A DNA stretch of 64,000 bases from a virus. This document shows positions 4,193 to 34,600 of the stretch, one piece after another (the first letter of the stretch is position 1; each line of letters starts with the position of its first letter). The DNA is taken from the IMG/VR virus record IMGVR_UViG_3300029305_003176. The stretch is one strand, 5' to 3'. Both the position numbers and the translations under genes were made by a program. The notes under the pieces were generated by a model that saw only the letters and a program-made list of their open reading frames with translations, was not told where the DNA came from and made no database searches.

Positions 4193-4654
4193 TTATTCAC
4201 CATCCAGATATGAGTTCCATGCGTAGCCTCTGTCAGCTATCATACGTCTCTGTTTCCTTTGACAATTATTTAATAAATTCTGAAGTTCTGATAAGTGCTG
4301 ACTTTGACTAAAAAATCGTTCATCCTTAGAACCAAACATCTGAGCAATATTATTAATGCTATTAATTTTAGGTTCTAACCAAGCCACTACGACACCAAGA
4401 GTTAATACTTCTGTGATAAACTCTGTATCAGAAAAATCGTCTACAGAATACTTCATCTCATAAGAAATTTCTTGTATCTCATCATCCAAACTAAAAGTTT
4501 TAAATAATCTACGAACATATGGATTAGCAGAAGCAGAATGAATCCAGTTACACAAGAAATCATTCAATTCTTCTTCTGGCAATTCTATAAAGTCATATGC
4601 CTCAATTTTACTAAAGAGGCGAGAATAAATTTTGTTATAATCTAAAGAGGTCAT
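4193..4654 (-). CDS. Head-tail adaptor (connector) protein
   Basis: 153 aa predicted helical, WLEPKIN...FFSQSQHL motif, two genes after capsid. Confidence 0.6.
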   Translation of the reverse strand: MTSLDYNKIYSRLFSKIEAYDFIELPEEELNDFLCNWIHSASANPYVRRLFKTFSLDDEIQEISYEMKYSVDDFSDTEFITEVLTLGVVVAWLEPKINSINNIAQMFGSKDERFFSQSQHLSELQNLLNNCQRKQRRMIADRGYAWNSYLDGE

Positions 4655-4671
4655 AATTTACCTCCTCATTG

Positions 4672-5271
4672 TTAGTATAAATTAGTTGTAATCAAGAAGT
4701 TTGTACCATAAAACTCATCAAGTGCTTTAATCTTCTTTACAGAATCTAAAGTACCATTGAGAACCATCTTGCCTACAATGTTCTTAAGATTGCTTTTAGA
4801 ACCATCAGGGAGCTTGCTAATTTTATTCATCATAGCATCAACCGGTAAAGCCAAAATCTCTTTAAGGTCTCTAGTTGAATACATAGAATCATAAATCTTT
4901 TGAACCTTTGGGAACTCTGCAAGAAAATCTTCATCCTCAATAATAAAATGAGGTGCAGTAACATAAGAAGTATTAGAACGCACAGAAGATACTAAATCTC
5001 TGTACTCAACACCTTGAACATCTCCATTATCAGACCACTTGTAATGATTATGTGACTGAATACCGGACATAACGAGTATACCGTCTACTATTGAACGGCA
5101 CATAACTTCTTCCATTGGTTCAAATTTCTTTTTCTCTTTTACAACTACCTTTTCAGTTACTACTGGTTCAACTGTCTCTACAGTTTCAACTGCTTCTTCA
5201 ATTACATCTACAATCTCTGTAACTTGTTCAGTCTTTGGGGTTGTAGTTTTCTTTGTCATTGTTTTTGCCAT
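4672..5271 (-). CDS. Hypothetical protein immediately after capsid gene
   Basis: 199 aa, low-complexity Glu/Val/Thr N-terminus; RBS AGGAGA. Confidence 0.6.
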   Translation of the reverse strand: MAKTMTKKTTTPKTEQVTEIVDVIEEAVETVETVEPVVTEKVVVKEKKKFEPMEEVMCRSIVDGILVMSGIQSHNHYKWSDNGDVQGVEYRDLVSSVRSNTSYVTAPHFIIEDEDFLAEFPKVQKIYDSMYSTRDLKEILALPVDAMMNKISKLPDGSKSNLKNIVGKMVLNGTLDSVKKIKALDEFYGTNFLITTNLY

Positions 5272-5298
5272 TGTTTATTTTCTCCTTTTAATCTCAAT

Positions 5299-5324
5299 AA
5301 GAGAGGGCGTTTAAACCCTCTCTT
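5299..5324 (-). terminator. Intrinsic terminator after major capsid gene
   Basis: AAGAGAGGG-loop-CCCTCTCTT hairpin. Confidence 0.55.
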
Positions 5325-5353
5325 AAATGTTTAATTATTAATTGTTAAGAGGC

Positions 5354-6047
5354 TTAAAATGTCCACTGTCCGAAGTATCTACCAATCTGTGTTACGATAC
5401 CAAAACCTCTCTGTACTTCGTATACCTGTGTATCATCCATACGAACAGCCTTTTCACCTACGCCAACTTCATTGATTTCTGTTTCACCTTCATCAACAAG
5501 CTTAACGAACTTATCCTCAATAGCAGGCATAATAAGTAACTTACCAGATGTGATAAGTCTCTTTTGTTCATCTGGAAGATCAACAAAACCTACTGCAAAT
5601 CTCTGTGGGATTTCAATAAGGTCTGTACCTTCATAAGAACCTAATCTACCGTGAGCCATCATATCCTTCTTAGAATCATTGTCAGCCCAAGTAACATCAG
5701 CTAAAGCATTAAGCTTCTTAAGAGCTGTGTTTGTACCCATAATATAAACAGGGCAGTTACCATTAGCTGTTGAAACGTCTTCGATTAACTGATCAAAATC
5801 TTCCTTAGCTGCTGCATCAAGAGCACCTGTACCCTGGAACATAGATGGAAGAGTAGCACCAGCATTGATTACTGTTGCATAGCAGTCATTCTTAATCTTT
5901 CTTACGAAAGCATCTGCTGTCTGCTGAACGAACTTATTCCAATCAAGTCTACCAGCAAGGTATAAAGAAACGTCAGCACCTACTGCAATTCCATACTTAG
6001 AAATTGTAGCAGATGTGCTTTCGCCAGCACCCAATCTCTGTACTGTA
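5354..6047 (-). CDS. Major capsid protein, exon 2
   Basis: Joins exon 1 as ...GDHHDF|TVQRLGAGES...; 428+694 nt = 374 codons including stop (373 aa). Confidence 0.88.
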
Positions 6048-21167: not shown

Positions 21168-21208
21168 GACCCACCGTGGTACGCATTACTAAGAGGCGTG
21201 GTGGGTTC
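21168..21208 (-). ncRNA. Orphan structured RNA resembling the abiF RNA motif
   Basis: GAACCCACCACGCCUCUUAGUAAUGCGUACCACGGUGGGUC: 7-bp outer stem, 4-bp inner stem, ACCAC bulge; family assignment is from recollection. Confidence 0.5.
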
Positions 21209-30234: not shown

Positions 30235-30249
30235 AAAAATCAAGAGTGG

Positions 30250-31310
30250 ACAAATAAGACCACTCCTTACAAAGCAAAAGCTTTCAATTAAAGATTCAGA
30301 ACACCGTGCGCAACGCTGTCCCTATAGAACTAAAAGTTCTCAATGAATACGGGTGACGATAAGCTAATCCTGTCCGTGTTTTACCCCGTATTAATGTGTA
30401 GTCTCTGCAAAGAAAACACAAATCTAGGACTAAGGTTTTTTCAATAGGGAATTGCAGTTACCTATTGAAGCTATGTAAGTTGCCCACTTAAGGGTTCTTT
30501 TTATACGGCTCGTAAAGAGCAATGTTACAAGGCTCAACCCTTGCTTGCAGTTCTTAACTGCATTTTTTTAACATTCTACTTAAACGTGCCTTTTCACACA
30601 TCATTTGCATATGTTCTTTAGAATGTACAATATCAGTATTTTCGTTAAAAACCTGTTCTGATCTAGTAGCCCATCTCAGGTTAGAAATAGTATTATTATT
30701 TTTATTTCTGTCAATATGATCTACAGTAGGCTTGTTTTCTGGATTTTCTATGAAAGTTTCAGCAATAATCCTATGCAACAATAAAGTTTCCACACGATAA
30801 CTGTCATTACTCAATTTTACTTGATAATAGCCATCTTTTCTTTTTCTTGGACTTAAAAATTTATTTGATATATAACTCCAAATTCGCCCATCCTCGGTTG
30901 CCGCATAACGACCTTCATATCCTTTAATATCCTTCATTTGTTCTCCTTTAAATACAATATCATTTATATAGGAGTGTTCCGTAAAACACCCCTATAATTA
31001 ATTGTAGTCTCAATCCTACATGTAGAAAGTTCCTTTCTATGTTCCCCAGCTTCTCAGTACCAGGTGGTGGACGCATATGTACGCCACTGAAATTTATTCA
31101 GACCGCTATAGAGCAGTAGCGATAGAGTTTTTGATTGGCTTCTCACAAACCAGCTATTTTAACACTCAGTTTATTAATCGGATAGAGTTATTAACCGATG
31201 CTCTTTGTCTGACTTTAATTAAATTCGGTAGATATTATAAACGCCGAATTATATAAGAGCCGTCTTTAGCTATGCATAAGACAGATTCCTTTTCTACACA
31301 TGGTAGATAG
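30250..31310 (-). ncRNA. Candidate large structured RNA (~650 nt) interrupted by an HNH ORF; ends approximate
   Basis: Long-range pairings 31257-31263/30505-30511, 31199-31206/30514-30521 and 31009-31018/30425-30434; many local hairpins; no ORFs in the flanks. Confidence 0.6.
30554..30937 (-). CDS. NUMOD4/HNH homing endonuclease
   Basis: KDIKGYEGRY...GRIWS; LHRIIAETFI.NP...VDHIDRNKNNN...NLRW. Confidence 0.9.
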   Translation of the reverse strand: MKDIKGYEGRYAATEDGRIWSYISNKFLSPRKRKDGYYQVKLSNDSYRVETLLLHRIIAETFIENPENKPTVDHIDRNKNNNTISNLRWATRSEQVFNENTDIVHSKEHMQMMCEKARLSRMLKKCS

Positions 31311-31317
31311 GTTATTT

Positions 31318-31422: not shown

Positions 31423-31484
31423 AAATAAACGAAAATGTCATAATGACAAAATCTCAGCTCAATCCACACAAGGACGGATGAGTA

Positions 31485-31560
31485 TTGCGGAGAGGTGGAT
31501 TTGAACCACCAACCTTTGCCTTATGAGGGCAACGAGCTAACCGAACTGCTCCATCCCGCT
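31485..31560 (-). tRNA. tRNA-Met(CAT), initiator-like body with irregular acceptor stem
   Basis: AGCGGGATGGAGCAGTTCGGTTAGCTCG; anticodon arm TTGCC-CTCATAA-GGCAA. Confidence 0.8.
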
Positions 31561-33418: not shown

Positions 33419-34600
33419 CATCTGTTATATCCTTGGCTCTTTATCCAAGGCTTCTCCGATTTTTACCGGAGTATCGGACTATCTCTTTACCCTCGTCTTT
33501 ACGTTAGGGTATTCAGCACTCGTGGGTGGATTATTGTTTAACCTACTCACCACCTAGTCTCTAAACCTTACTATCTAATTTTATGGTTTTCAATAGTCTT
33601 GGTAATTGATTAACATGTGTGTGTTATTTTTTAATATAGCTAAAAATTAAATTTTTATATGGTTTGCCGGTTTCCACTGACTTAATAATATATGGACGCA
33701 TAGAATCAATTTTACATTTTATTTTATATTCGTTCTGCATCCATTCGGCACAATCCTTTATACATCCAAAATCTTTTATATAATTTCCGTCTAAATCATA
33801 CACATAAACTTCCTTAGCTCGTCCGTTTTGAGAACCAGGTCTAGAATAGTATTGAATTCTTAATTCCGGATTATCTTTTACTTTGTTATGTAAAGTTTTG
33901 TTACCATAATTAGGATTATTTTCTCCATATTGATTTGATAATCTGTTATGAGTTTTTTCTAACCAATTTTTATATGTTTCATTGGTCATTCTTTCTTTAG
34001 GACTTATTCCATACATAGGATTGTTTTTCCCAGAAGAAGATAGGCTTAATTTTTCTTTTATTTCTTTTGCTTTTTCATCAGAATACGAATCCCATACATT
34101 AATACCATACATCGGATTATTTTTACCTAACATATCTACTGAATGTTGTTTACACCATTCTTCAGAATGTACCATTCCAAATGAGCCATCTCCACCAAAG
34201 GTATGATTGGTTAAATGACCAAGTTCTACTTTTTTATTGTTATAACCTATAATATCAATACCATAACCCAATGTAAAAACGTAATATTGAATGAGTTCTC
34301 TTTCAAATTGATATGCTTCTTCTTCTGATAAATTATCTTTTATAATTTTAACTTTCATTCCACATTTTTCTACAATTCTATTGTGATGTTCATTACGTGA
34401 AATGAAATTGGCACGTTTACCCCTACCTTTACCAACATAAAAACAGGTATTATTATCAAGCCTTATATGTTCATATACATAATAATCATTTTTATTCATG
34501 TTTTCACCTCCTTTTTATTTTTATAAACACACATTTAGTCTTCCAATTTTCACTGAATAGTTTTTGAACTACATTTCTGTAGAACCGACCCATTTTGTTA
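33419..34600 (-). ncRNA. Group I intron (1182 nt) in RNA polymerase gene
   Basis: Exon UGGCU pairs with IGS GGUCG with terminal U.G; R element GGUUUAGAGACUA, S element AAGAGAUAGUCC; terminal G at 33419; 1696+923 nt = 873 codons. Confidence 0.9.
33624..34499 (-). CDS. Intron-encoded GIY-YIG-like endonuclease with NUMOD3 repeats
   Basis: YYVYEH...FYVGKG, LTN.T.GGDG, repeated GKNNPMYG. Confidence 0.85.
   Translation of the reverse strand: MNKNDYYVYEHIRLDNNTCFYVGKGRGKRANFISRNEHHNRIVEKCGMKVKIIKDNLSEEEAYQFERELIQYYVFTLGYGIDIIGYNNKKVELGHLTNHTFGGDGSFGMVHSEEWCKQHSVDMLGKNNPMYGINVWDSYSDEKAKEIKEKLSLSSSGKNNPMYGISPKERMTNETYKNWLEKTHNRLSNQYGENNPNYGNKTLHNKVKDNPELRIQYYSRPGSQNGRAKEVYVYDLDGNYIKDFGCIKDCAEWMQNEYKIKCKIDSMRPYIIKSVETGKPYKNLIFSYIKK

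Follow-up and report, generated by a model that had tools for sequence, protein, structure and literature searches.

Free-standing homing endonucleases are already known in phage transfer RNA (tRNA) clusters: SegB of T4, the closest analogue documented for the present case, is one, and its recognition site includes the TpsiC stem-loop of a tRNA (PMC2330249; also PMC13096335). Here we describe an HNH nuclease gene in the tRNA cluster of a gut phage, on a 64,000-nucleotide (nt) stretch of IMGVR_UViG_3300029305_003176 (the window; coordinates are window positions, and features are read on the minus strand), where what received the insertion is a folded non-coding RNA other than an intron. We consider it probable that this gene sits inside a small three-hairpin RNA motif, set among swappable modules, and not inside a giant RNA. 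As in T4, a selfish nuclease gene occupies the tRNA cluster and is absent from relatives that keep its flanks, and just as the SegB site includes a conserved stem-loop of an RNA gene, the window gene adjoins the conserved third stem-loop (S3) of the motif. However, SegB is a GIY-YIG enzyme coded between tRNA genes, while the window gene codes for an HNH protein inside a structured motif that is not a tRNA, and duplicated motif pieces have not been described around segB. Cleavage and homing have been demonstrated for SegB, whereas the window nuclease is known from sequence alone.

The protein resembles I-HmuI and I-HmuII of the Bacillus phages SPO1 and SP82, with which it shares a homologous N-terminal DNA-binding sheet and HNH motif; both I-HmuI and the window protein come from large Firmicute-type phages. 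I-HmuI, however, is the product of an ORF within a group I intron of the DNA polymerase gene, and its C-terminal region is of the helix-turn-helix type, while the window gene has no intron and its C-terminal part is deleted. Among structured RNAs, theta ribozymes, which are a minimal version of the hepatitis delta virus (HDV)-like type, also abut tRNA genes in gut-phage arrays (PMC10879173), but they fold as a nested double pseudoknot and the motif described here has three independent hairpins. GOLLD and ROOL are non-coding, phage-borne and adjoin tRNA genes, as does the island between tRNA-Met and tRNA-Glu in the window, which nonetheless matches neither model and has, instead of a conserved large core, a mosaic of small modules. 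Integrative elements that enter tRNA genes make good the displaced 3' end with a copy of their own. The window insert likewise brings a replacement for the displaced part, so that the gene is whole on one flank and partly repeated on the other. In those elements, however, an integrase acts at an att core that is identical in both copies, while here the copies share a fold but differ in sequence, and a homing endonuclease is the mobile gene.

The interrupted three-hairpin motif

Approximately 95 related viral contigs were fetched with the PhoH-like and zinc-ribbon neighbor genes as queries; loci are cited by L numbers. None of the deposited phages is close to the window phage; known phages match the coding part of the HNH gene only. 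The empty allele was found in L067, where ...GCUGGGAAAUUCCAGGGAGAUACU / ...GAGAAGCUGGGAAAUUCCAGGGAGAUACU runs directly into CUGCAAGCAAGGGUUGAG... and the whole is contiguous at 5171-5241. In the window, the same sequence is split, its first part ending at approximately 31041 and its second starting at 30551, at the HNH stop codon. The initial annotation had placed the nuclease gene within structured non-coding sequence of the tRNA cluster, and this much is borne out, the interrupted sequence being conserved.

The interrupted element consists of UCCACC(ACC), hairpin S1 (6 base pairs [bp], variable loop), GGGGAACU, hairpin S2 (6 bp), CAAG, and hairpin S3 (5 bp, loop GUUGAG; consensus GUUGRG), over a length of approximately 71 to 90 nt. 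In three HNH-less phages (L067, L125, and L127) it is uninterrupted. The last two were found by a metagenome scan with the conserved string 3' of the stop codon, and each of their copies fills the gap between two tRNA genes of a metagenome tRNA array (string matches to S3 in L124, L126, L128, and L129 were due to chance). A covariance model built from the three HNH-less copies (R1) was run over the collected loci. The elements of the window are as follows, all on the minus strand:

31001-31087, minus: left motif copy, complete (R1 49.3 bits, E value 3e-10, model positions 1-71 at 31071-31001; nhmmer E value 1.5e-6)
31087-31082 with 31073-31067, minus: optional hairpin S0 of the left copy
31071-31063, minus: UCCACCACC, left copy
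31064-31059 with 31050-31045, minus: S1, left copy
31039-31033 with 31029-31023, minus: S2', left copy
31019-31016 with 31007-31004, minus: S3', loop GAUUGAGA, left copy
30938-31000, minus: HNH leader, between the left motif copy and the open reading frame (ORF)
30554-30937, minus: HNH gene, 127 amino acids, NUMOD4 and HNH_3 domains, I-HmuI-like (Pfam HNH_3 2.7e-10, NUMOD4 2e-9)
30528-30561, minus: right partial motif copy (S2-S3), following the HNH gene and contiguous with the left half in L067
30561-30557 (GCAGU) with 30551-30547 (ACUGC), minus: S2'', overlapping the stop codon and followed by CAAG
30543-30539 with 30532-30528, minus: consensus S3 of the right copy, loop GUUGAG

The S2' of the left copy is wholly rewritten (UAGAAAG/CUUUCUA), with all six S2 pairs changed and the pairing preserved. 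The right copy scored 33.5 bits with R1 (E value 5e-6, 30590-30525), a match that is convincing for its S2-S3 part only. R1 also found full copies approximately 100 nt upstream of two HNH homologs. For L042, whose HNH protein is 68% identical to that of the window, the score was 43 bits, and for L132 (53% identical) it was 60 bits. The left copies in L133 and L134 were weak (7.5 and 9.2 bits; E values 0.5 and 0.2); in L133, an S2-S3 copy spans the stop codon (15.9 bits, E value 0.003). Four independent HNH lineages thus repeat one layout, made of a full motif, a leader of 63 to 159 nt, the HNH gene, and a second S3 or S2-S3 at the stop. In every HNH lineage a stem-GUUGNG-stem hairpin lies within a few nucleotides of the stop codon, each time with a different, covarying stem:

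window: CAAGG/CCUUG
L042: ACAGG/CCUGU
L132: GGGCGG/CCGCCC
L133: UGAAG/CUUCA

Pair counts over the three hairpins were compared with 500 shuffles in an alignment of 7 rows (A9). Pairing was present in 96.5% of the cells and double changes in 11 of the 17 pairs, values that were not reached by any shuffle (0/500) in any measure; the signal peaks sharply at register 0 and collapses on sliding. Many of the pairs are U-G, so that the fold exists on the tRNA-sense strand only, which favors an RNA over a DNA element. The motif is single copy in the phage L067 and absent from the L068, L065, and L057 records. The copies in L125 and L127 matched no Rfam family at an E value of ≤5, HDV-like families included, and this result, together with a supported fold of three separate hairpins, led us to discard a theta or HDV-like ribozyme. 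A closing stem between UCCACC and a downstream GGUG was also rejected, because by eye the pairing is not kept in L125 and L127. On the evidence of covariation, then, the motif appears to be a previously uncatalogued small RNA family of phage tRNA arrays.

The nuclease itself aligns with the SPO1 intron endonuclease I-HmuI (PDB 1U3E) over residues 2-100 (E value 9e-18). Comparison with the 84%-identical copy in L043 gave a ratio of nonsynonymous to synonymous substitution rates (dN/dS) of 0.10 at a dS of approximately 1.07, i.e., strong purifying selection. Similarity between L043 and the window extends over the leader and the ORF to 25 nt past the stop, beyond which the two diverge. In the leader, 30996-30985 and 30978-30967 form a hairpin; its 3' strand includes CUCCU (30974-30970), complementary to the ribosome-binding site AGGAG (30947-30943), and the hairpin stays paired in L043 via one compensatory change. 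Comparable pairs of an anti-Shine-Dalgarno sequence and a ribosome-binding site are found in the leaders of L042 and L132 (CCUCUUU/AAAGAGG) and L133 (CUCCUA/UAGGAG). Judging from this complementarity, the leader pairing could limit translation of the nuclease.

Two further observations concern HNH genes in these clusters. Three related contigs (L020-L022, approximately 4879-5511) code for a different HNH protein of 186 amino acids, about 40% identical to that of the window, between tRNA-Met and the next tRNA, which makes the tRNA cluster a repeated landing place for HNH genes. In L042, an 80-nt element right after the HNH gene and its S3 hairpin (4582-4661) resembles a bare tRNA-like domain of transfer-messenger RNA, with a GGGGAUA/UAUCUCC acceptor stem containing G3-U70, a T-arm, and an ACCA end; ARAGORN makes no call there.

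Spanning helices, large RNAs, and introns

In the initial annotation, the non-coding sequence at both sides of the gene had been read as one large structured RNA, ROOL- or GOLLD-like or of a new class, held together by helices spanning the HNH ORF. The complementary strings are present on the minus strand exactly at the positions given for them:

31263-31257 (ACGGCUC) and 30511-30505 (GAGCCGU), minus: proposed helix
31206-31199 (AAAGAGCA) and 30521-30514 (UGCUCUUU), minus: proposed helix
31018-31009 (UAGGAUUGAG) and 30434-30425 (CUUAGUCCUA), minus: proposed pseudoknot

Such pairings are no more than chance. Taking 31320-30938 as the 5' flank and 30553-30236 as the 3' flank, we found between them 7 perfect Watson-Crick helices of at least 7 bp versus 8.6 ± 3.0 in 500 dinucleotide shuffles, and 4 of at least 8 bp versus a shuffle mean of 2.2. 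The nesting of the first two helices, taken before as a junction, is equally unremarkable, since a nested pair no more than 4 nt apart arises in 51% of the shuffles. One of these chance-level 8-mers, AUGUGUAG (31301-31294) with CUACACAU (30401-30394), was considered as a GOLLD-like candidate and rejected; its 3' arm sits in hairpin 2 of the F domain, a module described below. Neither are the pairings conserved among relatives. L065 and L057 carry module E1, which holds the 3' arms, with no upstream counterpart of ACGGCUC or AAAGAGCA, while the L043 contig stops before the region where the 5' arm partners would lie. The 5' arms themselves (31263-31257 and 31206-31199) fall in a block (approximately 31316-31144) with no homolog among the approximately 130 related loci. 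Both arms of the pseudoknot are accounted for locally, the 5' arm as S3' of the left motif copy and the 3' arm as the closing stem of the F domain. With a whole motif already lying 5' of the ORF, pairing across the HNH gene is not required. The local stems suggested at the same time fared better: those at 30440-30469 and 30346-30392 are backed by compensatory changes in L068, while the one at 31222-31250 has no homolog with which to be compared. The minimum free energy (MFE) z-score of the 3' block (-2.3) was moderately low; those of the 5' block (-0.7) and the ORF (-0.9) were ordinary.

As to known families, Rfam 15 has no match to ROOL, GOLLD, or group I introns in the window at gathering score, and between 29600 and 31700, at an E value of ≤10 with lax filters, only tRNAs and noise were retrieved, with no ROOL (RF03087), GOLLD (RF02032), or group I intron. 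Both RNA models work in this material: RF02032, whose gathering score is 150 bits, reaches 153 to 191 bits in L003, L009, L014, L023, L065, L071, L072, and L105, and RF03087 detects ROOL in L053 at 290 bits. A scan for motif strings that are GOLLD signatures was uninformative. The 3' region of GOLLD has been described as universally conserved, while its 5' region is variable, with a linker able to hold tRNAs (bioRxiv 10.1101/2024.12.08.627333). Lacking that 3' region, the window is not GOLLD, and membership in either family is largely refuted. What holds of the lead is the position, because in at least eight related contigs GOLLD is found at the syntenic place, upstream of other tRNAs and next to tRNA-Met or tRNA-Pro.

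This shared slot beside tRNA-Met, a similar overall length, the z-score of the 3' block, the apparent single promoter-to-terminator unit, and the tolerance of GOLLD for a variable 5' region and inserted tRNAs are what speaks for the whole stretch of approximately 700 nt being one RNA, either a diverged GOLLD- or ROOL-like molecule or one of a new giant class, with a loop that houses the HNH gene. We regard this as improbable, given the silence of both models, the chance level of the inter-flank helices and their lack of conservation, the ordinary stability of the 5' block, the fact that local covarying structures take up all the arms tested, and the differing subsets and orders of modules in the closest relatives. 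No collinear large RNA was found; the RNA that the gene interrupts is the motif of 71 to 90 nt. As a separate observation on this slot, L006 (4865-5672) and L013/L015 (4830-5672) have ORF-free gaps of 810 to 840 nt between tRNAs that are 71% identical to each other, have a G+C content above that of their surroundings, and show no Rfam match and no likeness to the window modules. They are candidates for a further large RNA in the GOLLD slot.

An HNH protein of the I-HmuI type could also point to a group I intron, possibly degenerate, that bears the ORF as SPO1-type introns do. An 11-nt match to the R consensus CAGAGACUACA at 30405-30395, with UAGUC-type S-like strings nearby, goes in the same direction, and the negative cmscan is weak evidence, since Rfam Intron_gpI at gathering score also misses, 2 kb away in the RNA polymerase gene (33419-34600, minus strand), an apparent group I intron that has an internal ORF of 291 amino acids and clear R (GGUUUAGAGACUAGG) and S (AGAGAUAGUCCG) elements. 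However, at our locus there is no host gene and there are no exons, the tRNAs are intact, and ARAGORN, allowing introns of up to 1400 nt, finds no split tRNA. Beyond the ORF, the DNA that the empty site lacks amounts to only some 100 nt, which is too short to hold an intron core. The R-like string is replaced by GCAGACAGUAAG in L068 and lies in a local hairpin with four compensatory pairs, and the S-like strings are 5' of the R-like ones, i.e., in the wrong order. Although the flanks are contiguous in L067, what they form is a small RNA motif already whole 5' of the ORF, and no split tRNA or protein gene was found. An intron is thus a very remote explanation for this region.

Exchangeable modules around the motif

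On the minus strand, the order of genes is HU-like gene, tRNA-Met, a gap of 1250 nt (1.25 kb) with a single real ORF inside, tRNA-Glu, tRNA-Gly, tRNA-Asp, and the PIN-PhoH gene. Besides the motif and the HNH gene, the following features make up the region:

31895-31620, minus: HU-like gene, at the head of the local gene order
31559-31486, minus: tRNA-Met, next in order after the HU-like gene
31428-31485, minus: module after tRNA-Met, terminator-like hairpin UGUCAU/AUGACA and U-run (80 to 84% identical to L057 640-696 and L068 5280-5336)
31316-31422, minus: two tandem 58-nt units, the last part of each being an extended -10-like box, TGTAGAAT or TGTATAAT (the window has just these two copies, L057 one at 682-751)
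approximately 31144-31316, minus: block A, lineage-specific non-coding sequence with a hairpin at 31250-31222 (homolog absent among the related loci)
31093-31143, minus: block B, short conserved module (76% identical to L065 7346-7395)
30480-30521, minus: modules E1 (UGCUCUUUACGAGCCGU) and E2 (20-mer AAGAACCCUUAAGUGGGCAA) (92% identical to L065 7490-7539)
30339-30469, minus: F domain (64% identical to L068 5591-5733)
30469-30440, minus: F hairpin 1
30434-30429 with 30344-30339, minus: closing stem of F
30420-30395, minus: F hairpin 2
30391-30347, minus: F hairpin 3
30236-30300, minus: G module, with a small hairpin (30284-30271), a terminator-like hairpin (30267-30242), and a U-tract (89% identical to L068, 81% to L067)

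The module at 31428-31485, by its terminator-like hairpin, would close the upstream tRNA unit, and the -10-like boxes make the tandem units the likely start of the non-coding/HNH transcription unit, with a promoter function that we infer. Units of a similar kind, with a short hairpin and then A/T-rich sequence, are also seen ahead of the HU genes in L067 and L068. The F domain keeps its pairing through changes on both sides in 9 of the 28 predicted pairs relative to L068. G directly precedes tRNA-Glu, and its two hairpins are kept in L067 and L068 through compensatory changes, with two compensatory pairs in the small hairpin.

E1, which contains the 3' arms of the proposed helices (30521-30505), can fold locally (GCUC-UUUAC-GAGC). 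E1 and E2 are also found together in L043 and, in reversed order, in L057; pattern matches to E1 in L064 were due to chance in coding sequence, and those in L066 may be chance too. The E2 20-mer AAGAACCCUUAAGUGGGCAA (30480-30499) has a palindromic CUUAAG core and is present, exact, in 20 IMG/VR contigs (L044-L063) in varied contexts. In L059, two tandem E2 copies lie between a sigma-70-like promoter and a terminator, resembling a tiny small RNA (sRNA). An exact-pattern scan for block C matched the L067 contig only.

Pairwise comparison of the ORF-free stretches of the window, L043, L057, L065, L067, L068, and L118 revealed modules of approximately 30 to 150 nt (with Z reaching approximately 190 nt) that recur in differing sets and in differing order. 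The orders are given here for four of them, in which N, Y, H, and Z are ORF-free modules not found in the window:

window: A-B-motif/HNH-E-F-G
L068: N-F-Z-G
L067: motif-Y-H-Z-G
L065: H-B-E, followed by a tRNA-like element and GOLLD

The only module common to the window, L067, and L068 is G. Subsets shuffled in this way are hard to square with one RNA of fixed long-range architecture.

Other elements were found in the same islands. A module starting with GCAUGAAUGGAA and ending with ...AGUUAGUUAGUGCUUUAC is a further exchangeable structured module, found twice in L067 (5327-5410 and 5578-5760) and also in L057 (1078-1166) and L043 (741-889). L068 (4922-4998), L065 (7605-7681), and L067 (4866-4948) have in common a conserved tRNA-like element of 77 nt, in which an anticodon-type loop reads CUCAUAA; neither ARAGORN nor the Rfam tRNA model at an E value of ≤0.01 calls it. 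Matches to the Rfam abiF RNA (38 to 43 bits) were obtained in the window (21169-21205, minus strand), L057 (977-1013), and L009 (8868-8904), and the one in L057 directly precedes the E2 20-mer.

That modules lie at the boundaries of exchanged segments leaves room for a reading in which they are DNA joints for mosaic exchange and not RNAs, the flanks of the gene being the ordinary untranslated regions and DNA signals of a free-standing homing endonuclease, from promoter and terminator to translational control and sites of homing or recombination. Phage nuclease genes are known at boundaries of genetic exchange (PMC10448857), and the E2 20-mer is invariant across many contexts, as a protein-binding DNA site would be. 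However, stems covary while loops stay constant, both in the motif (11/17 pairs) and in the F domain (9/28), the pairing needs G-U pairs present on the tRNA-sense strand only, and the copies of the motif that have no HNH gene occupy exactly tRNA-sized places between tRNA genes, fitting an RNA released by tRNA processing. We consider it unlikely, though less so than a giant RNA, that DNA joints are the whole explanation.

A proposed nuclease cassette with spare hairpins

The insertion into a small RNA motif, which we favor, could have proceeded as follows. The island, with some 700 nt of non-coding sequence, apparently runs from the promoter-like units (approximately 31420-31320) to the terminator-like hairpin (30267-30236) and is built of short structured modules that related phages exchange freely. 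In HNH-less phages, the motif occupies a "tRNA slot" between tRNA genes. By comparison with L067, a free-standing I-HmuI-like HNH cassette has been inserted in the motif DNA at the linker between S1 and S2, presumably by homing. The cassette would comprise S2'-S3', the leader, and the HNH gene, so that its own diverged but fold-keeping S2'-S3' leaves the upstream motif whole, while the resident S2-S3 is displaced to just past the stop codon. The two motif pieces may give the nuclease gene portable homology arms and/or signals for RNA processing or stability, and a leader that sequesters the ribosome-binding site would limit translation. The flanking hairpins may equally be nuclease-binding sites.

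Several points weigh against this reconstruction. The promoter, the terminator, and transcription as a single unit are deduced at the level of consensus sequences. The matched empty site comes from one lineage only (window versus L067); for L042, L132, and L133, the point of insertion is extrapolated from it. The 7 rows of A9 were fitted to the model, and S1 of the right-copy matches is probably forced. The HNH proteins of the window and L043 lack about 50 C-terminal amino acids of their homologs of 160 to 180 amino acids (alignment A8); with this DNA-binding part gone, site-specific homing activity is uncertain. The distant HNH homologs L130 and L131, in TAG-recoded phages, have no motif nearby. 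Finally, the left copies of L132 and L042 are near consensus, so that "immunity by divergence" is not a general reason for the duplication.

The analysis disposes of a false lead, since there is no new giant RNA at this locus. In its place it provides a putative small RNA family of phage tRNA arrays, supported by covariation, whose function can now be tested, and a concrete, testable case of a selfish gene inside an RNA gene that it does not destroy. The "large RNA slot" beside phage tRNAs can, by this evidence, be filled by GOLLD or, alternatively, by a mosaic of small RNAs that are exchanged, and this has a bearing on the purpose of such RNAs. More tentatively, a clade of I-HmuI-like HNH genes may have specialized on the three-hairpin RNA gene, each cassette bringing diverged, fold-preserving spare hairpins, so that the RNA stays functional and the nuclease gains homology arms derived from the motif. 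If so, this would be the RNA-gene counterpart of the "harmless insertion" of introns and inteins and of the integration that restores tRNA genes.

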